A stretch of DNA of 64,000 nt from Squalus acanthias (taxonomy: Eukaryota), in assembly GCA_030390025.1 (NCBI GenBank), contig JASTWF010000033.1, forward strand, positions 498,001-562,000, written 5' to 3'. Position 1 is the first letter of the stretch, and every line of letters begins with the position of its first letter. The position numbers and the translations under genes were made by a program. The notes beneath the pieces are model-generated. The model saw only the letters and a program-made list of their open reading frames with translations, made no database searches and was not told the DNA's origin. Positions 14,651 to 59,430 of this stretch are shown here, one piece after another.

Positions 14651-14671
14651 AATCGTGAAAGAAAAAAATTA

Positions 14672-16640
14672 TTCAATCTAACACAACACTTCAATCTAAT
14701 AACGCACTTCAATCTAATACAGCACTACAATCTAATAATGCACTTCAATCTAAGACAACACTTCAATCTAATACAGCACTAATTCTAATAATGCACTTCA
14801 ATCTAATACAACACTTCAATCTAATACAGCACTTCAATCTAATACAGCACTACAATCTAATAATGCACTTCAATCTAATACAGCACTTCAATCAATACAG
14901 CACTGAAATCTAATTTAGCACTTCAATCTAATACTGTACCTCAATCTAATACAGTACTTCAATCTAATACAACACTTCAATCTAATACAGCACTTCAATC
15001 TAATACAGCACTTCAATCTAATACAGCACTTCAATCTAACACAACACTTCAAACTAATACAGCACTTCAATCTAATACAGCACTTCAATCTAATACAGCA
15101 CTTCAATCTAATACAACACTTCAATCTAATACAGCACTTCAATCTAACACAACACTTCCATCTAATACCGCACTTCAATCTGATACAGCACTTCAATCTG
15201 ATATAGCACTTCAATCAGATACAGCACTTCAATCTAATACAGCACTTCAATCTAATACAGCACTTCAATCTAATACAGCACTTCAATCTAATACAGCACT
15301 TCAATATAATACAGCACTTCAATCTAATACAGCACTTCAATCTAATACAGCACTTCAATCTAATACAGCAGTTCAATCTAATACAGCACTTCAATCTAAT
15401 ACAGCACTTCAATCTAATACAACACTTCAATCTAATACAGCACTTCAATCTAATACAGCACTTCAATCTAATACAGCACTTCAATCTAATACAGCACTTC
15501 AATATAATACAGCACTTCAATCTAATACAGCACTTCAATCTAATACAACACTTCAATCTAATACAGCACTTCAATCTAATACAGCACTTCAATCTAACAC
15601 AACACTTCAAACTAATACAGCATTTCAATCGAATACAGCACTTCAATCTAATACAGCACTTCAATATAATACAGCACTTCAGTCTAATACAGCACTTCAA
15701 TCTAATACAGCACTTCAATCTAATACAGCAGTTCAATCTAATACAGCACTTCAATCTAATACAGCACTTCAATCTAATACAACACTTCAATCTAATACAG
15801 CGCTTCAATCTAATGCAGCACTTCAATCGAAAAAAGGCACTTCAATCTAATACAGCACTTCAATCTAATTCTGCGCTTCAATCTAATCCAGCACTTCAAT
15901 CAAAGTCAGCACTTAAATCTAATACAACACTTCAATCTAATACAGCACTTCAATCTAATACAGCCCTACAATCTAATAATTCACTTCAATCTAATACAGC
16001 ACTTCAATCAATACAGCACTGAAATCTAATTTAGCACTTCAATCTAATACTGTACCTCAATCTAATACAGCACTTCAATCTAATACAGCACTTCAATCTA
16101 ATACAGCATTTCAATCTAATACAGCACTTCACTCTAATACAGCACTTCAATCAAATACAGTTCTTCAATCTAATGCTGCCCTTCATTCTGATGCAGCCCC
16201 TCAATCTACTGCAGCCCTTTAATCTGTTACCGCAATTCAATCTAATACAACACTTGAATCTTATACAGCACCTCAATCAAATACAGCATTTCAATCAATA
16301 GCGCACTTCAATCTAATACAGCACTTCAATCTAACACAACATTTAAATCTATTACAGCACTTCAATCTAATTCAGCACTTCACTCTAATAGAGCTCTTCA
16401 ATCAAATACAGCACTTCAATGTAATACAGTACTTCAATCTAATGCAGCACTTCACTCTAATACAGCACTTCACTCGAATGCAGCCCTTCAATCTGATACA
16501 GCTTTTCAATCTAATACAGTACTTCAATATAATACAACACTTCAATCTTATACAGTACTAATCTAATACAGCACTTCAATCTAATACAGCACTTCAATCT
16601 AATGCAGCACTTTAATCTAATACAGCACTTGAATCTGATC
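14672..16640. repeat. 18-bp satellite (CTTCAATCTAATACAGCA)n, ~109 copies
   Basis: Direct tandem repeat, homogeneous in the centre and decayed at the edges. Confidence 0.98.
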
Positions 16641-16903
16641 CATAATTTCTAAATAATGCGACACCTCACGCTAATAAAGCACCTCAAACAACGAGCCATA
16701 CCCTGTGTGCAACTAACAGATATTTCAATAACTCAATTTGTTGTAGTGGCTCACCTGGTACACCAAAGATTGCAAGAATAATGAAGTATACGGATCCGAT
16801 TGTGTAAAATGTTGACAACATGTTCTGCGTTAAGCGACCTTTCCCTGCGTGCTGCAGGCAATCTCTCTGAATTGATCTCTGAGGCAATACATTCCCTGAG
16901 CCT

Positions 16904-17668: not shown

Positions 17669-18792
17669 TGTAAGGGGTATCTTAAGTGAGCGGTTCGAAT
17701 CACTCCAACACCCCTCCGGTTCCTAGACTTTAGGCTTATTTAGGGGTTGTGAACAAAATTGCAGTAAACAGGTTCTGATGTAAGAAATGTACTTTATTAA
17801 AAGAAAAAAAAAGGTAACAAACTTGAAACACACTTATTACTTAAACACAGATTCTGGGAACACACGGTACAAGCGAGGGAAATAACAATATATCAAACAA
17901 AACCTTATCCCTCCCAAATATCCCACTATCTGGCTAGGTATTCGGTTTCAGGAGATATGGGATAATGCTCACCAACGAATCCTTGGCAGGATATTAGACT
18001 CTTTTGTTTAAAAGGACTCCGTAAGGCCCTTGGTGCTGCGAGGTGTATGATGGCCACTGCGGCAGTCACTCTGGTTTCTTCTTGCGTGCTGATCTTCTGG
18101 CATTCTTCCTCGTGGCTTGTGGTAAGTTTTGCTAGAGCAGGGAGAGAGCTGTGTCCGCGTCGCCAGTCAGTCCAAAGAGAGAGAGATTATGGCACAGGCT
18201 TTCAAGTTATAATGTTTCTTTTTCGCGCTCAAAAACCCCACAGTAAAACGAATTCCTTTTTGAATGTAAATGACCCTTGCTTCGTCCAATTGTCCAGTCC
18301 TTGCTTAGTGATTTAAATCGCTTTCCGATTTAAACACCGCTTTATTTACACGCCAAATCTTCACTCTATTGTCCTTCTGTTGGCGGGCTTTTAAATCAGT
18401 TCTCTGGATTCCTGGTTGATTGGTTTTTTGGATGGGATAATGGCTATGAAACAGTGTGATCAAAGTTGTATTGTCATTGAATCGTTTTTAGATTACCAGC
18501 ATCTTGTTTGCCCCTGGGAATCCATATTTGAATGTGTTTGTGAGTTTTGCAGTGTCTCAAACAATTCCCAGACAGCTTGATCCGTTCACTGACCGGCCAC
18601 GCCCCTCGCAGCTTGTCTGTGAAAAAAAATGTCTCTCCCAACAATAAGATTAAAACAAAAATCAGTTTCCTCAGGTTTTTTACATCAAATCACTTCACTG
18701 AGGTCCCACCATCCCAAGTTTGTATGAAAAGTCCAAAAATCACTCCCATTAGGGCTCTGTTCGAGTTTCTGGGGGATTTTGCGAAGCCGACA
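17669..18792 (-). mobile_element. Probable solo LTR (~1.1 kb)
   Basis: TG..CA termini (TGTAAGGGG..GCCGACA); minus-strand TATAA ~18210 and AATAAA ~17795; no TSD seen. Confidence 0.45.
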
Positions 18793-18794
18793 AG

Positions 18795-20540
18795 AGTCTG
18801 AGAGGGACAGTGTGTGAGAGAGTGAGTGTGTGTGAGAGAGTCTGAGAGACAGTGTGAGAGAGTCTGAGAGAGACACTGTGTGAGAGAGTGAGTGTGTGTG
18901 AGAGAGTCTGAGAGACAGTGTGAGAGAGTCTGAGAGAGACACTGTGTGAGAAAGTGAGTCTGAGAGAGACAGTGTATGAGAGAGAGTCTGAGAGAGACAG
19001 TGTGTGAGAAAGTGAGTCTGAGAGACAGTGCATGAGAGAGTGAGTCTGAGAGAGACAGTGTGTGAGAGTGTGATTCTGAGAGAGACAGTGCGGGAGAGAG
19101 TGAGTTTGAGAGAGACAGAGTGAGAGAGTGAGTGTGAGAGACAGTGTGTGAGAGAGTGAGTCTGAGAGACTGTGAGAGAGTGAGTCTGAGAGAGACATTG
19201 TGTGAGAGAGTGAGTCTGAGAGAGACAGTGTGTGAGAGAGTGAGTCTGAGAGAGACAGTGTGTGAGAGAGTGAGTCTGAGAGAGACAGTGAGAAAGAGGG
19301 AGTCTGAGAGAGACTGTGTGAGAGAGCGAGTCTGAGAGACAGTGTGTGAGAGAGTGACTCTGAGAGACAGTGTGCGAGAGAGAGTCTGAGAGAGACAGTG
19401 AGAAAGAGTCTGAGCGAGACAGTGTGTGAGAGAGTGAGTCTGAGAGACAGTGTGAGAGGGAGTCTGAGAGAGAGTATTTGAGAGAGTGAGTCTAAGAGAG
19501 AGAGTGTTTGAGAGAGTGCGTCTGAGAGAGACAGTGAGTGAGAGAGTGAGTCTGAGAGAGACAGTGAGTGAGTGAGTCTGAGAGAGACAGTGTGTGAGAG
19601 AGTGAGTCTGAGAGAGAAAGTGTGTGAGAGAGTGAGTCTGAGAGAGACAGTGTGTGAGAGAGTGAGTCTGAGAGTGTGTGAGAGAGTGAGTCTGAGAGAG
19701 ACGGTGTGTGAGAGAGTCTGAGATTGACGTTGTGTGAGAGAGAGAGTCTGAGAGAGAGAGTGTGTGAGAGAGTGAGTCTGAGAGAGACAGTGTGTGAGCG
19801 AGTGAGTCTGAGAGTGTGTGAGAGAGTGAGTGTGAGATAGTGAGTCTGAGAGAGATGGTGCGTGAGAGAATGAGTCTGAGAGACAGTGGGTGAGAGAGTG
19901 AGTCTGAGAGAGACTGTGAGAGAGAGAGAGTGAGTCTGAGAGAGAGTGTGTGAGAAAGTGAGTCAGAGAGTGTGTGAGTGAGTGAGTCTGAGAAAGAGAG
20001 AGAGAGTGAGTCTGAGAGTGTGTGAGAGAGTGAGTTTGAGAGAGACAGTGTGCGATAGAGTGAGTCTGAGAGAGATGGTGTGTGAGTAAGTGAGTCTGAG
20101 AGAGACACTGAGTGAGAGAGTGAGTCTGAGAGAGACAGTGTGTGAGAGAGTGCTTCTGAGAGAGACAGTGTGAGAGAGAGTTAGTCTGAGAGAGACGGTG
20201 TGTGAGAGAGTGAGTCTGAGAGAGACAGTGTGTGAGAGAGTGTCTGAGAGAGACAGTGTGTGAGAGAGAGTCTGAGACAGTGTGTGAGAGACTGAGTCTG
20301 AGAGAGACAGTGTGTGAGAGAGTGAGTCTGAGAGAGACAGTGTGTGAGAGAGTGCTTCTGAGAGAGACAGTGTGAGGGAGAGTTAGTCTGAGAGAGACGG
20401 TGTGTGAGAGAGTGAGTCTGAGAGAGACAGTGTGTGAGAGAGACTCTGAGAGAGACAGTGTGTGAGAGAGAGTCTGAGACAGTGTGTGAGAGACTGAGTC
20501 TGAGAGAGACAGTGTGTGAGAGAGTGAGTCTGAGAGAGTG
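18795..20540. repeat. ~30-bp GA/GT-rich satellite (GAGAGAGTGAGTCTGAGAGAGACAGTGTGT)n
   Basis: 30-nt period with dinucleotide slippage. Confidence 0.97.
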
Positions 20541-24354: not shown

Positions 24355-24690
24355 CGGCCTTGGCTCATTGGTAACTCTCGCTTTTAGAATCATAAAGATT
24401 GTGTGTTCAAGCCCCCCTCCAGAGAGTTAAGCACAAAATCCAGGCTGAAACTGCAATGGGGTGCTGAGGGAGTGCCGCACTGTCGCAGGTGCCGTCTTTT
24501 GGATGGGACGTTAACCCGAGGCCCTGTCTGCACTCAAAGGTGGACGTAAAAGATGCCACGGCACTATTTCGAAGAAGAGTGGCCGAGTTCCCCCCGGGGT
24601 CCGGGGCCAATATTTCTCCCTTGACCAACATCACTGAAGCGATTATTTGGCCATTGGCCACAGTACTGTGTGTGGGATCTTGCTGTGCCC
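24355..24690 (+). mobile_element. SacSINE1/DeuSINE-like tRNA-derived SINE
   Basis: tRNA-like head (TGGCTCATTGGTA..GTTCAAGCCC); body GTGCTGAGGGAGTGCCGCACTGTC..GGACGTAAAAGATGCCACGGCACTATTTCGAAGAAGAG..; Deu-type end GTGGGATCTTGCTGTGC. Confidence 0.8.
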
Positions 24691-25440
24691 ACCGTGCAAT
24701 GTGTGGGATCTTGCTGTGCCCACAGTGCTGTGTGTGGGATCTTGCTGTGTCCACAGTGCTGTGTGTGGGATCTTGCTGTGTCCACAGTACTGTGTGTGGG
24801 ATCTTGCTGTGCCCACAGTGCTGTGTGTGGGATCTTGCTGTGACCACAGTGATGTGTGTGTGATCTTGCTGTTCCCACAGTGCAGTGTGTGGGATCTTGC
24901 TGTGCCCACAGTGCTGTGTGTGGGATCTTGCTGTGCCCACAGTGCTGTGTGTGGGATCTTGCTGTGCCCACAGTGCTGTGTGTGGGATCTTGCTGTGTCC
25001 ACAGTGCTGTGTGTGGGATCTTGCTGTGCCCACAGTGCTGTGTGTGGGATCTTGCTGTGCCCACAGTGTTGTGTGGGATCTTGCTGTGTCCACAGTGCTG
25101 TGTGTGGGATCTTGCTGTGCCCACAGTGCTGTGTGTGGGATCTTGCTGTGTCCATAGTGCCATGTGTGGGTTCTTGCTGATCCCGCAGTGCTGTGTGTGG
25201 GATCTTGCTGTGCCCACAGTGCTATGTGTGGGATCTTGCTGTGCCCACAGTGCTGTGTGTGGGATCTTGCTGTGCCCACAGTACTGTGTGTGGGATCTTG
25301 CTGTGCCCACAGTGCTGTGTGTGGGATCTTGCTGTGCCCACAGTACTGTGTGTGGGATCTTGCTGTGCCCACAGTGCTGTGTGTGGGATCTTGCTGTGCC
25401 CACAGTGCAGTATTTGGGATCTTGCTGTGCTCACAGTGCC
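24659..25440. repeat. 31-bp minisatellite (CACAGTGCTGTGTGTGGGATCTTGCTGTGCC)n, ~25 copies
   Basis: Direct tandem repeat. Confidence 0.97.
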
Positions 25441-38855: not shown

Positions 38856-39150
38856 CTCTGCTTAGCTGAATATCCAGAAAGATCTGTTCAGCGAGAAGGT
38901 GAAATGCTGAATCCCAGATTCTGGATTAATTTCCTTTCACTAACATTTCTCCGACCGAAACTGCACAAATCAAAAATGTTCCTTTCAAAATCATTAAACT
39001 CTCGAATTTCCGCGTCGCCACACAAATCTTCTGAATCAGAGGCCTCCAGTTTTGCCACTCAATCAATGTCCCTTTGCAATTCCCTGCTCCCATCCACACT
39101 AATTACTGCACCACTGTCGATCAGCGATAATAGATATTCAAAGTGATCAG

Positions 39151-39204
39151 GCCATGCGAGTTCAGTCGGTAACAGGCTCTTGGGTTCGGACCCCAAGTTA
39201 GGCG
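39151..39204 (+). pseudogene. tRNA-Lys relic
   Basis: CAGTCGGTA..TGGGTTCGGACCCCAAGTTAGGCG; flanks paralogous to the 51435 and 58172 copies. Confidence 0.7.
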
Positions 39205-39751
39205 AAGGTTATTGTTAAACTTTTTGTTTGTTGCTTTCACGGCAAATCATCATGAATTCACCGGTAATTTTCTTTGGCACAATGAAAGAAATGCTAACTG
39301 AGGGAGAGTCGATACTTCAATCATTTTATTTGTGCTTTGCACGTTAACTGTTACCCAGATCTCCTTTTACACACGGTACTTTAGGAGTCTGGTTTAGAGT
39401 GTTCATTGCTGATGACACCAGGAATCTGGGGCAATATTTGTCAAATTGAACAGCACCGGTTATTTCCACCGGGCTCAGAAAATAGAACCAGCAGTGAACA
39501 TGAAATCCCATTGTGCTGACATTCAGATTAAACGCAGTCAGCTTTGAAATAAAGTGAAATAATTTTACACTGAAAAGATTTGTAAGTAAGTATTTGGGCC
39601 TTTAAAAAAGTTTGTAGCATCTGATTCCTGTTCATGTCACTTCTTCCTCTGTTGAATAAGAAAGGAGGGGTTTGACGTTGTCCAGACTGCACTGCGCCTG
39701 ATGTTTGTGAGCTCATCCTTTATATTGAGCGGTTTCTCGCCTTTTGATCGG

Positions 39752-39841
39752 CGTCATCTTTAGCTCAGCGGTTACCTCGCAGCACCAACTTAATTCTAAT
39801 TTCGACCCCTGTCTCACCGCGGGCGCTGCCTGGCGTGTTTT
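39752..39841 (+). ncRNA. Vault RNA-like gene, copy 1 (more decayed)
   Basis: CTTTAGCTCAGCGGTTACCTCG..CCGCGGGCGCTGCCTGGCG plus T-run; upstream TATA-like (39719-39727) and TGACGT (39673). Confidence 0.8.
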
Positions 39842-39964
39842 TTTGTCCTTTTCAATCCCCTTATTTTACAATGAAACAAATTGTAGCCGTGATTTTAATT
39901 CAGCAGTGTGAGATTTTTCGAGGAAACCTTTAACTGATTCAATAACCTATTCTTATCAGTAAGT

Positions 39965-39995
39965 GTAACCCGTATTCGATTCCCGGTTAGGGAAG
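39965..39995 (+). pseudogene. tRNA-Glu-like 3' relic (paralog at ~52272-52301)
   Basis: TTCGATTCCCGGTTAGGGAA resembles the tRNA-Glu 3' end. Confidence 0.5.
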
Positions 39996-41563
39996 TAACA
40001 TTGACATCACCGTTTTTAATTAATTAAAGCGAATAAATAACATGCAACTAATGTGAAAAAATTAAGAAATGTTTGAATCACCATTAATTAACTGATAACC
40101 TTCTTTTGCAGAATGATAAATATTATAATATGGTGACTGAGGGACAGTCGAGACTTCAGTCATTTATTTTGCTCTTTGCATGTGCTGAACTGTTAACCCA
40201 TATCTCATTTTACACATTGTAATTTAGGAGAATGTTTTAAAATGTTCATTGCTTGTAAGAGCAGGATCTGGGGCAACTTTTTGTTAAATTTAAAAGGACC
40301 GGCTATTTCACAGAACAAAAATGCTCTGACATAATGTTTTCAGACCACACACTGACCGATCTTTCTTCGGCCCAAAGTGGATGATCTGACACTTGCCCAC
40401 GTTAAACTCCATTAATCACAGTTCCGGGGAGATTTAATAGAACTGTTCAAAATTATGGGGGAAACTGTTTCCACTGACAGGAGGGTCAGTAGGGCTGTGG
40501 GGGAAGAGCAGCGGAGTGGAACTAATTGGAAAGCACTTTCAAAGTTGCTACATCAATTGTTCATTTTAACCTGCGATTGATAATTTTTTTGTAACCACAA
40601 GTATTAAGGAATAATTCAAGTATGTGAGACATCTTATAATTGTTTCAATCATCATTAATCAACCAACAACATTGCGTTGCACACTGTAGGAATTGTTAAC
40701 ACGTTTACTGGGTGACAGCCAAACTGCAATAACTTATTACAGAATCACAGAATCATACAGCACAGAAGGAGGCCATTCGCCCCATCGTGCCTGTGCCGGC
40801 TCCTTGAAAGAGCGATCCAATTATTTCCACTCCCCAGCTCTTTTCCCGAAGCCCTGCAAGTGTTTCTTTTTCAATTTATTTCCCTTTTGAAAGTTAATAT
40901 TGAATCTGCTTTCACCACCATGTCAGGCAGAATATATTTACACCAATGTTATCCAAGTCCCATTTCACACAGTGATTTCCCTGCTTTGCATGTCATGAAA
41001 TGTTATCCCTTCTCATTTTACACACTATATTTTAGGAGTTTGCTTAAAAATGTTCAATGCTTGTGACATCAGCCATTGTTAGATTGAAAAAGATTGCAGC
41101 TCCTTTCCTTGGTAATCTCTGCCCCAAAGTGCTGTTGATGCTCATTCGTTGAGTATATTCAAGGCTGAGATCGATGATTTTTGGACTGCAGTGGAATCAA
41201 GGGATATGGGGATAGGCAGGAAAGTGGAGTTGAGGTCGAAGATCAGCCATTATCTGATTGAATGGCGGTGCAGTCTCGGGGGGCCATAAGGCCCACTCCT
41301 GCTCCTAATTCTTTCGTTCTTATGTCCTTTCACAGCAGAGCAAACTCGCCCCTGGACATGTATAAGGAGCAAGTTCCAAAAAAATGTTTCCGTGAACGTG
41401 AAAGCTCCTGCACTGCGGAAACGTCTCCACTTTAAGTACCAGGTCAGATGGAAATGTTCAGCGAGCAGGTGAAACGCTGAATCCCACTTTTCAGGGATGT
41501 CCCAAAGCGCTTCACAGTGGCGTGAAAAGAAATGAGTTGCACTTAGTTATTAAATATAGGGAA

Positions 41564-41647
41564 TATCAGAAGGGTGATTCGAACCCACGCCTATTAAATG
41601 AAACTGCGACGTGAAGGCAGCGTCTTCGACCACTCGGCCATCCTGAC
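41564..41647 (-). pseudogene. tRNA-Leu(CAG-type) pseudogene; anticodon reads CAC
   Basis: GTCAGGATGGCCGAGTGGTCGAAGACGCTGCCTTCACGTCGCAG..GGCGTGGGTTCGAATC. Confidence 0.87.
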
Positions 41648-42294
41648 AGCTCCTAAACTAAATTGCAAGTTATCACTTGCACATTTAGAAAGTTTCAGTC
41701 CGGATGCTTGTTCGATGCTACTCGAAGGCTCAGTGACCGGGATATCATCTCCCCCGGGGTGTTTCTGAACCTCTGCTCGGTGTATGGGGAGGTTTGGCCC
41801 GGGTCCGTGATATCTCGCAGCCCAGGATGGACAATAACCCTCTGAGCTCTGGAGCTGGGGAAGAGCGAGTAATTAACGGGTTTGTTTCCGCGTCTGAAAT
41901 GCGGCTCAGATCTGATGATATTAACCGAGGCCGGGGTTGCGAGATGTTGCATTTTGTTTAGGTTTAATCAGAGGAATATCCGCCGTCAGGAGCTGAAAAG
42001 GACTAAGAGCTGAAAAAACACAAGAACATTGATAAGAAATGTAAGCAATTGTGATAAACTCGAAAAGTGTTTTCTGGTAGTTTAGTGGTTTAATTGTTTT
42101 AATCACCATTCATTAACCGATAGAGTTGTTTTTTGCAGAGTTAAAGAGATGCTCACACTGAGGGACAGTCGAAACTTCAATAACTTAAATTTAATAATTT
42201 GCGAAACTTTATTCATTGATGAAGTTTTATCACCGATCTGATTTTACACACTGTGTATTAATTTATTTCACAGAAATAATACTCTCGAACATAA

Positions 42295-42825: not shown

Positions 42826-44087
42826 CATAGAGTCAAAACGGCATAGAAGGAGGCCATTCGGCCCATCGAGTCCGTGCCGGCTCTCTGTAGAGCAATCCAG
42901 TCAGTCCCATTCCCCCCGCTCTGTCCCCGCAGCCCTGCAGGTTTATTTCCCACAAGCGCCTATCCAGTCTACACTTGAAAACATTGAGTGTCTCCGTTTC
43001 CACCACTTCCGTCAGCAGCGAATTCCAGGTCCTCACCACTCGCTGCGTAATTTTTTTTTCCTAACGACCCTCCTGTATCTCTTGCCCAATAACTTAAATA
43101 TGTGTGCTTAGTCCTTTTAACATCAACTAGTGGGAACATCCTTTCCCCGTTTAGCCTATCCAAACTCATTATAATGTTGTATACCTGTATCAGTTCACCC
43201 CTCAACCTCCTTTGTCTTAAAATACTCCTGTGCCGCGCCTTGGGACGTTTTATTATGTCAAAGGCGCTATATAAATGCAAGTTGTTGTGGTTGTAATGAA
43301 AACAAATGCAGCTTCTCCAGCCTGTTCTTGTAGCTAAGATCCCCCATCACCGCAACCATTCTGGTAAATCTCCACTGCACCCTCTCAAGGGCCTTCAAAT
43401 CCTTCCTAAAATGTGGTGACCAGATCTGGACGCAGTACTCCAGTTGCGGCCTAACCATAACTTTATGAAGGTTCAGCATCACTTCTCTACTTTTGTACTC
43501 CATACCTCTATTTATTAAGCCCAAGATCCGATATGTTTTGTTAACCACTCCCTCCATATGTCCTGCCACCTTCAAGGACCTATGCACATTAAATCCCCGG
43601 TTCCTCTTTCCCTGCACACTCTTTAAAACTGTGCCATTATGTGTATATTGCGTCTCACTGTTCCTTCTGCCAAAATACATCACTTCACACTTCTCTGTAT
43701 TAAATTCCATCTGCCACTTGCCTGCCCATTCTGCTAGCCTTTCTCTGTCCTGCTGCAGTCGATTGGTATCATCCTCACTGTTTGTTACACCCCCAAGTTT
43801 GGTGTCGTCGGCAAATTTAGAAATTCTACTCTGTAATACAATATCCAGGTCATTTATAAATATCACAAAAGCAATGGCCCCAGCACTGACCCTTGGGGAT
43901 CAACACTGTCTACCATCATCCAGTGTGAAAAACAGCCATTTACCACAACTCGCTGTTTTCTATCGTTCAGCCAATTCCTTATCCAAGCTGCCACTGACCC
44001 TGCTATTCCACCAGTCTCAATATTGTAAACCAGCCTTCTATGTGGTACTTTATCAAACACCTTTCTAAAATCCATGTAGACAACAGC
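42826..44087 (-). mobile_element. CR1 RT-3' fragment carrying a short SINE/L2-type tail insert (~43215-43295)
   Basis: MDFRKVFDKVPH, KFADDTK; insert GCGCCTTGGGACG..AAAGGCGCTATATAAATGCAAGTTGTTG. Confidence 0.92.
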
Positions 44088-46943: not shown

Positions 46944-47039
46944 GTGCAGACTTCAGCGAACATCCTCATTTCTGACCTTATTTTGGAGGGAAGGTCATTG
47001 ATGAATCAACTGAAGATGGTTGGGCCTCGGACACTGCCC

Positions 47040-47639
47040 TGTCTAGGACCCTCGTGATTTTGAACACCTTTATCAGATCTCCTCGCAAACTGCCCTGCTC
47101 TAAGGAGAACAACGACAGCTTCTCCAGTCTATCCACGTAAATGAAGTCCCTCATCCCCCGAAACATGCTTGTGGAACTTTTCTGCCTTCACATCCTTCCT
47201 AAAATGTTGTGCCCAGAATCCTCCACCTGAGGCCGAACCAATGAAGTATAAATGTTTCGCATTACTTCCTTGCTTTTGTAATCTATGACTCTATTAATAA
47301 AGATGATGTGGAGATGCCGGTGTTGGACTGGGGTGGACAAATGGGAGAAGTCGCACAACACCAGAAGAAGGTCACCTGACGAATGAGCAGCGCTCCGAAA
47401 GTTTGTGATTTCAAATAAAGCTGTTGGACTATAACCTGGTGTTGTACGACTTCTCCCATCTATTAATAAAGCCAAGGATCCCTTATGCTTTTTAACAGCC
47501 TTCTCAACTTGTCCCGCCACCTTCAAAGATAGATCAATCTTTGGTAAATCCAGGTCTCTCTGTTCCTGCACACGATTTAAAATTGTACCATTTAGTCTAT
47601 ATCGCCTCAGTTCAATCTTCCGCCCAAAATGGATCACTT
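47040..47639 (-). mobile_element. CR1 fragment paralogous to ~58785-59210
   Basis: Collinear sequence with shared deletions. Confidence 0.85.
47303..47458 (+). mobile_element. Short Penelope-like insert with minimal hammerhead ribozyme motif
   Basis: 13-bp TSD TCTATTAATAAAG (47290-47302 / 47459-47471); inverted arms 47341-47364 / 47436-47459; GGTCAC-CTGACGA-ATGAGCAGCGCTCC-GAAA-GTTT-GTGATT. Confidence 0.82.
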
Positions 47640-47885
47640 TGTGGTGGATCGCCACCTAAAACGGGCATAATCCACTCTTCCGTCTGTGGACAAATTTCCA
47701 GCCCCTTACCTTTAAGGCAGAAGTGGGCGGGGCCTCAGGTTTTACCCAGAGAATTCTGGGAGTTTACCCAGGGAATTCTGGGACCAGCTTTCTCAGACAT
47801 TTTGTTTTGCCATGCAGTGAATAAAAGCTTTTTGTATTCCACATATGGATTCAGTCTCCATTCGTGTTTCGCGGCAGCCTCAACA
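47640..47885 (+). mobile_element. 5' LTR of Gypsy element (246 bp)
   Basis: TGT..ACA termini, AATAAA at 47820, immediately followed by a PBS. Confidence 0.9.
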
Positions 47886-47886
47886 T

Positions 47887-47900
47887 TGGTGACCCCGACG
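47887..47900 (+). promoter_or_regulatory. Primer-binding site for tRNA-Trp
   Basis: TGGTGACCCCGACG is the reverse complement of the tRNA-Trp 3' end CGTCGGGGTCACCA. Confidence 0.92.
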
Positions 47901-47928
47901 CTCAGAACGTATTCCGAGCACTGCAACG

Positions 47929-58469: not shown

Positions 58470-59430
58470 CAAAAGCACAGAAGGAGGACATCCGGCCCAT
58501 CGAGCCCATGCCTGCTCGCTGCAAAACGCTTCAGCTCGTCCCACTCCCCCGCCCTCAGCCCTGCAATATATTTTCCTTCGGGTACTTATCCAATTCCCTT
58601 CTGAGAGCCACGATTGAATCGGTCTCTACCACGCTTTCAGGTAGTGCATTCCAGATCCTTATCACTCGCTACCCAACGTTTTTTTTCCTCATGTCGCCTT
58701 TGCTTCTTCTGCCAATCACCTTAAATCTTGATCCTCTGGTTTTCGACCCTTCCACCAATGGGAACAGTTTCTCTCTATCGACCCTGTCTAGAACCCTCGT
58801 GATTTTGCACACCTCTATCAAATCATCTCGCAATCTTCTCTGCTCTAAGGAGAACAACGACAGCTTCTCCAGTCTAGCCACGCAACTGAAGTCCCTCATC
58901 CCCGAAACAAGCTTGTGAATCTTTTCTGCCTTCACATCCTTTCAAAAATGTTGTGCCCAGAATCCTCCACCTGAGGCCTAACTAATAATGTATAAAGGCT
59001 GAGCATTACTTCCTTGCTTTTGTAATCTATGACTCTATTAATAAAGCAAAGGATTCCGTATGCTTTTTAACAGCCTTTTCAACTTGTCCCGCCACCTTCA
59101 AAGATGGATAAATACACCCCCAGGTCTCTTTGTTCCTGCACCCGATTTAAAATTGTACCATTTAGTTTGTGTTGCATCTCCTCAATCTTCCTACCAAAAT
59201 GGATCACTTCACACTTCTCTGTGTTAAATTACATCTGCTGTGTCTCTGCCCATTTCACCACTCGGTAGATGTCCTCATGAAGTCTGTTACTTACCGTATC
59301 ATTGTTTACTACATTTCTGAGTCTCCTGTCATCTGCAAACTTGGAGATTCAGCCCAGTATACCCAAGTCCAGGTCATTAATATATATGAAAAAGAGCAGT
59401 GGTCCTAATACAGACTCCTGGGGAACACCA
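58470..59430 (-). mobile_element. CR1 RT-3' fragment
   Basis: RLEKLSLFSLEQRRLRDDLIEV..RVDREKLFPL. Confidence 0.88.

Follow-up and report, generated by a model that had tools for sequence, protein, structure and literature searches.

Minimal hammerhead ribozymes (min-HHRs) are known from the pseudo-LTRs (pLTRs) of metazoan Penelope-like elements (PLEs), where a type-I core and a short helix I are combined with an extra nucleotide separating 9 from 10.1, the absence of loop 3 and, at the family level, palindromic positions 15.2-16.2 (Cervera and De la Pena 2014, PMC4209133). Most of these motifs stand singly in genomes and have been attributed to truncated PLEs; sharks are not named in the available portion of that paper, and its supplements may differ. 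Insertions of endonuclease-positive (EN+) PLEs are often built of a pLTR in direct orientation and, next to it, an inverted copy truncated at its 5' end, together with a tail of 30-40 bp at one end and a target-site duplication (TSD) (Arkhipova et al. 2013, PMC3846280; Craig et al. 2021, PMC8557442). For such inversions, self-priming on an antisense template has been favoured over double priming (PMC3846280). For Poseidon of Anolis carolinensis (PAc), cutting and extension at ATT affect both strands in vitro, RT starts at two sites bounding the tail on uncleaved RNA, and cleavage by the hammerhead requires the protein (Frangieh et al. 2024, PMC11167929). Finally, animal non-LTR retrozymes are derived from PLE pLTRs and were present in the single chondrichthyan sampled (Li, Clavereau and Pollet 2026, preprint 10.64898/2026.07.22.740005). 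Among the publications listed by literature searches, none deals with the PLE hammerheads of sharks, judged by titles and abstract starts; the supplements of the cited papers may list such motifs.

Here, we describe a 156-nt insert at 47303-47458 of the window (the whole 64-kb stretch of Squalus acanthias DNA analysed), which is a real but ordinary PLE stump whose structure defines it as a truncated EN+ PLE insertion. It shares with the min-HHRs all the traits listed above (the palindrome as a family trait), while this copy differs in lacking G10.1-C11.1, in having G.U at 15.2-16.2 and in its helix II of 5 bp. As in the complex EN+ PLE insertions, the pieces stand head-to-head, the tail is confined to one end, and the TSD is accompanied by an empty site; unlike them, the insert carries no ORF at all, measures only 156 nt and has a junction without a palindrome, and its TSD is of 13 bp compared with 8-10 bp in the rotifer examples. 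An AT-rich ATT target, two tail-bounding 3' ends and apparent copying through an uncut hammerhead are features in common with PAc. However, the PAc ORF starts inside the hammerhead, whereas the sole ATG in the present hammerhead depends on U47384 and its frame closes after 11 codons. The likeness to non-LTR retrozymes lies in the pLTR derivation, the non-coding nature and the type-I hammerhead; the insert differs from them in not being tandem, in having a single motif and in containing an inverted piece with a tail.

The insert was delimited by self-comparison of the window and is bracketed by two direct repeats identical at 13/13 positions, so the TSD and the coordinates given in the earlier note are correct (Table 1). 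By itself, a repeated 13-mer is weak evidence, as chance repeats of this kind at 60-300 nt spacing reach a mean of 0.5 per shuffled window (20 shuffles). It is the empty sites that make the TSD call decisive. The paralog at 58783-59210 can be aligned with either side of the insert, with flanks of 90% and 84.5% identity around 59034-59046 and a gap of 169 nt equal to the insert plus one TSD; the claim that the paralog at ~59030-59050 lacks the insert is thereby borne out. Two more distantly related LINE copies, one near 43.5 kb and the other near 30.1 kb, likewise run through the target site without a break, i.e., the site is empty in 3/3 aligned paralogous LINE copies of the window. Moreover, 216, 192, 229 and 19 contigs from four public runs pass from 47302 directly into LINE sequence. 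A TSD at an AT-rich site and an empty site are thus both present, as in a truncated EN+ PLE insertion. The homolog of the interrupted LINE fragment at 43391-43685 lies inside an ORF with an RVT_1 match, and its motifs are those of what we take to be CR1.

Table 1. Coordinates of the features in and around the insert (positions in the window; hammerhead numbering as in the available portion of PMC4209133)
Feature	Position	Strand	Remarks
Host LINE fragment	47037..47639	-	decayed, RT-type, split by insert; homology to 43391-43685
Left TSD	47290..47302	n/a	13 bp, 85% AT, ATT on both strands
PLE tail	47303..47340	-	38 nt, only on inverted piece
Left arm	47341..47364	-	inverted copy of last 24 nt of pLTR
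Junction filler	47365..47371	n/a	7 nt, no match in family contigs
Forward pLTR piece	47372..47458	+	87 nt, 5'-truncated, without tail
Minimal type-I hammerhead motif	47372..47408	+	
Helix I	47372-75/47405-08	+	
Core C3-A9	47376-82	+	CUGACGA, C3 = 47376
Extra nucleotide between 9 and 10.1	47383	+	
Helix II	47384-88/47392-96	+	U.C at 10.1-11.1
G12-A15.1	47397-400	+	GAAA
15.2/16.2	16.2 at 47402	+	G/U
U16.1-U17	47403-04	+	predicted cut after 47404
Right arm	47436..47459	+	end of forward pLTR piece; 47459 common to arm and TSD
Right TSD	47459..47471	n/a	13/13 identical to left TSD
Empty paralogous target site	59034..59046	n/a	single 13-mer copy, without insert
Second insertion, hammerhead-bearing PLE stump	50708..50807	+	100 nt, forward only, without tail
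TSD of second insertion	50693-50707/50808-50822	n/a	15 bp

Two pieces of pLTR joined head-to-head compose the insert: an 87-nt forward piece and, beyond 7 nt, a 62-nt inverted piece (47303-47364) made of the 38-nt tail and the 24-nt left arm. The inverted arms of 24 nt had been recognised earlier, and 23 of their 24 positions (96%) are indeed complementary. They pair because both truncated copies of the pLTR end overlap there. A hammerhead-bearing pLTR end, an inverted 5'-truncated copy and a 38-nt tail at one end only are what the layout of a truncated EN+ PLE insertion requires, and all of them are present. Separately, a reading of the arms as those of a DIRS element or a MITE was ruled out, since they are internal, do not lie at the insert ends and are explained by the pLTR overlap.

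Family evidence came from assembled contigs, not raw reads, of four public runs (X1, X5, X9 and X18, the last taken as RNA by guess only), compared with 47200-47560. The family terminus lies at 47303, where loose ends occur in 161, 119 and 25 contigs of X1, X5 and X18, respectively (median about 250 nt); before this position, agreement is 0.36-0.38 in these three runs, i.e., the flanks are unrelated. In X5, 22 contigs extend beyond 47364, where they match about 47412-47435 in reverse complement (agreement 0.97). On the forward side, two long pieces begin at 47372 (piece 11 of X18 and piece 19 of X5), and 50 contigs of X9 have a loose end before 47372 with sequence unlike 47365-47371. Since the family homology starts at 47372, we regard 47365-47371 as filler. 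It should also be mentioned that the tail at 47321-47329 is complementary over 9 bp to 47422-47430, just 3' of the hammerhead. In this copy, 10/2000 shuffles gave an equally good stem, and in a distant metagenomic relative (L002, see below) 210/2000 did, so we claim no conservation; as modelled, natural RNA could close this stem around the tail-less RT start.

As for the hammerhead, CUGANGA, GAAA and U16.1-H17 of the min-HHRs are all present in this copy, as are a helix I of 4-5 bp and the extra nucleotide, and no other letters are listed among family contigs at 47397-47400 or 47403-04. Of the type-I layout drawn in the earlier note, the core, the extra nucleotide and GAAA hold; stem II has 5 bp rather than 4, U47384.C47396 having been omitted, and of stem I (GGTCAC/GTGATT) the inner helix holds, while the outer two G.U pairs use 47370-47371, upstream of the family homology. 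The descriptor search that had been suggested was run with a minimal-HHR descriptor composed after the motif was already seen: the strict form gave 0 matches in the window, and the form tolerating a 10.1-11.1 mismatch gave 1 (C3 = 47376) and matched 0/200 dinucleotide shuffles. Searches with Rfam models returned no hammerhead at the gathering score in the window and none at E<=10 in 47200-47560 (2 chance matches only). In an alignment of four rows, of which two are nearly identical, helix I has 4/4 pairs in every row and 97% of helix cells are paired, versus 28-44% when the alignment is slid; covariation is thin and amounts to 1 compensatory pair in 9, a value reached by 120/500 shuffles. Taken alone, the hammerhead folds no better than shuffles (z -1.08, 23/200).

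Two paired positions of this copy depart from the model. In place of G10.1-C11.1 there is U47384.C47396, while the pair is kept in the second window copy (see below) and in the metagenomic loci L001 and L002, which were selected by a pattern requiring it. At 16.2, this copy has U versus C in the family, where C at 47402 accounts for 99.3, 98.6, 99.1 and 100% of the summed contig depth in the four runs. The family state at 15.2-16.2 is therefore palindromic, just as had been guessed with AAGCTT; with G.U at this place, the helix III self-duplex is computed at +2.4 kcal/mol, versus -4.5 kcal/mol for the L002 motif. No other letter is listed at 47384; however, the 47353/47446 difference between the arms is also unlisted, although one of its two sides has to deviate from most family contigs. 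Contig differences lying some 12 nt or less from an aligned end therefore seem unreported, which makes it likely, and not more, that U10.1 is private to this copy. The G10.1-C11.1 pair is described as conserved and structural, and the available passages on it give no rate for a U.C mismatch. Such a mismatch at 10.1-11.1 would be expected to harm cleavage. Judging from the sequence, the changes at 10.1 and 16.2 probably disable the ribozyme of this copy, so "ribozyme-bearing", as the insert had been called, suits the family better than the copy itself.

The window contains a second, related insertion (50708-50807), which is 81% identical to the first over 83 nt and has an empty paralog near 57.8 kb. 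Its hammerhead has G10.1-C11.1 intact and a decayed GAAA box. We also observed a GAAA tetraloop closing its helix II and one compensatory change in helix I. Both copies begin a short way 5' of the core, 4 nt upstream of C3 in the first and 14 nt in the second. When model R1, whose training set included these two copies, was applied to the window, it matched solely the two separate training copies.

The link to PLE ORFs was provided by L001 and L002, two metagenome loci that were found by a hammerhead pattern, i.e., chosen because of the motif, and that represent one family (99.6% identity over 677 nt). In L002, a 177-aa ORF is followed after 753 nt by the same motif (84% over 37 nt). This ORF has no Pfam match, scores 0.97 to GIY-YIG clusters by Atlas features, and shares 44-47% identity with the C-terminal ends of the proteins P0001 and P0002, both of which have RT and a Cys-rich linker ahead of the endonuclease (GIY-YIG on P0001 is below cutoff). 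Such a linker before the endonuclease, which L002 also has, is a trait of Neptune/Nematis, according to the available part of PMC8557442. The L002 sequence after the motif follows, in the same order, the forward end of the insert and then the tail (5/1500 shuffles as good), the post-hammerhead parts being singly weak (446 and 160 of 5000 shuffles). In L001, the same pLTR end adjoins an inverted RT fragment (RVT_1, E 1.5e-5, sub-cutoff). Taken together, these data tie the motif and the tail to PLE ORFs via a distant relative only. The Penelope-like origin that had been proposed thus finds support in the motif downstream of a GIY-YIG ORF in L002 and in the PLE layout of the insert itself, and the proposed extreme truncation is evident from its 156 nt without an ORF; having no RT/GIY-YIG ORF, the insert is not an autonomous PLE.

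Some further observations concern relatives of the motif. Both L001 and L002 are themselves head-to-head PLE composites: positions 1-373 of L001 are an inverted RT piece and positions 1-109 of L002 an inverted 3'-region piece, each joined to a truncated forward copy. A contig of 3967 nt from X18 has the motif at its positions 55-128 with 11 differences, and its size would suit a full-length PLE. The first hammerhead-pattern scan of viral contigs gave 0 matches, and the exact post-hammerhead and tail patterns were found in 0 viral contigs, 0 metagenomes and 0 prokaryote genomes. One bacterial and three viral hammerhead-pattern matches (L003-L006) were rejected as chance, lacking helix I or II on inspection; with model R1, L003 gave E = 0.099 and L004-L006 no match.

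Given this evidence, we believe that the insert is very probably a dead-on-arrival insertion of an EN+ PLE, truncated to the pLTR end; a double-nick priming route is its likely origin. In such a scenario, the RT/GIY-YIG protein of a full-length element would have introduced a nick into each strand of an AT-rich site, the two being separated by 13 nt. One of them would have primed RT at the tail-less pLTR end, so that 87 nt were copied through the hammerhead cut site until the forward cDNA stopped just 5' of the hammerhead core; priming by the other would have taken place at the tail end, which lies 38 nt further 3', and 62 nt were copied from there. The two cDNAs might then have been end-joined head-to-head via the 7-nt filler, with repair leaving the 13-bp TSD, and the 24-nt arms would be the stretch copied into both. 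The fit to Poseidon lies in ATT on both strands, one tail-minus end, one tail-plus end and a cut site crossed intact. The hammerhead is the minimal motif ordinary for the family, which according to the literature requires a second copy or PLE protein to cleave, and which here stands singly and has since been altered at 10.1 and 16.2. This copy lacks an ORF, has a single hammerhead and carries two changes that destabilise it, so it is probably inert.

The priming step is the only part of this scenario that is contested by an alternative of the same PLE origin, in which the inversion came from one intermediate, such as an antisense or tail-bearing template, by self-priming or by switching of the template, or in which a longer inverted insertion was later shortened by a deletion. 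Self-priming is the published reading of head-to-head (palindromic) PLE junctions (PMC3846280), and a single junction cannot fix the route. We consider such an origin less likely. Against it, the present junction has no palindrome, and the inverted piece skips 47372-47435 while having 38 nt that are missing from the forward piece; as the latter is without a tail, the tail cannot derive by fold-back from the insert's own first strand. Cutting and extension of both strands in vitro (PMC11167929) also disfavours a single intermediate. Returning to double-nick priming, we could go further and see in the insert a minimal footprint of priming at tail-plus and tail-minus starts on uncleaved RNA, with a forward cDNA that ends where the hammerhead begins on its 5' side, and a hairpin that favours the hammerhead fold, a reading that we consider doubtful. 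If it is true and tiny hairpins of this kind are abundant in the lineage, their junctions would allow double priming and self-priming to be weighed against each other genome-wide, and those hairpins that are intact could be fold-back, trans-dimerising ribozyme RNAs or re-mobilised mini-elements.

A mini-element is also what the earlier note had in mind for the insert itself. A dedicated non-autonomous 156-bp hairpin (SINE/MITE-like) with functional arms, transcribed and re-mobilised by PLE proteins, would agree with the compact, TSD-flanked structure, with the strong predicted fold of 47341-47459 (z -7.31), in whose ensemble helix I/II pairing goes up from 0.02-0.03 without the arms to 0.63-0.78 with them, and with the report that pLTR sequences alone suffice for trans mobilisation (PMC3846280, in the available portion). 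However, none of the 32 contig pieces listed, of 34,491, bridges the junction, and the summed contig depth of X1 (not a copy number) is about 0.5 million at the junction bins versus about 4 million per piece, which leans against a fixed mini-element, even if contigs cannot prove absence. Furthermore, family homology ends at 47372, other copies continue differently past 47364, the second copy in the window is without an inversion, and the ends at which RT starts both face outward, as expected of a one-off product. We therefore consider a mini-element improbable, and the notion of a self-contained mini-element or a non-autonomous family with arms of its own is not supported, as the arms are the overlap of two truncated pLTR ends in a usual PLE 5' inversion. 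Even less probable is a monomer of a non-LTR retrozyme, a tandem hammerhead repeat spreading via circular RNA. The size and the type-I hammerhead are compatible with it, and the chondrichthyan mentioned above speaks in its favour; yet retrozymes are defined, in the available text of the preprint, as tandem units with at least two complete hammerheads, the insert is single and head-to-head with a PLE tail, and no boundary of either window copy coincides with the cut site.

Both PLE minimal hammerheads and inverted-plus-tail insertions have already been published, and a single copy such as this one matters little. It can serve as a clean small example in which 156 nt bring together a TSD, an empty site and the two RT start ends. 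Larger sets of copies like this one bear on the way in which head-to-head inversions of PLEs arise and on whether the hammerhead cut plays a part in insertion.

Finally, we would like to comment on the surroundings. At about 47640, the host LINE is broken by an element with an 864-aa stop-to-stop ORF (47640-50487) that has a DUF7041 match and weak protease, RT and RNase H matches. We take it to be a Gypsy-like LTR retrotransposon; no LTR pair was found in 47560-50560. Vault RNA genes were identified with Rfam at 39751-39840 and 52062-52153, within a block of roughly 3 kb that occurs twice (39120-42292 and 51405-54497, 82-86% identical) and is surrounded by tRNA genes and tRNA-like copies. Overall, the window is repeat-rich and vertebrate-like, and it contains long tandem arrays at 14670-16690 (period of about 18 nt), 18700-20400 (low-complexity, TC/CA-rich) and 24655-25440 (about 31 nt).
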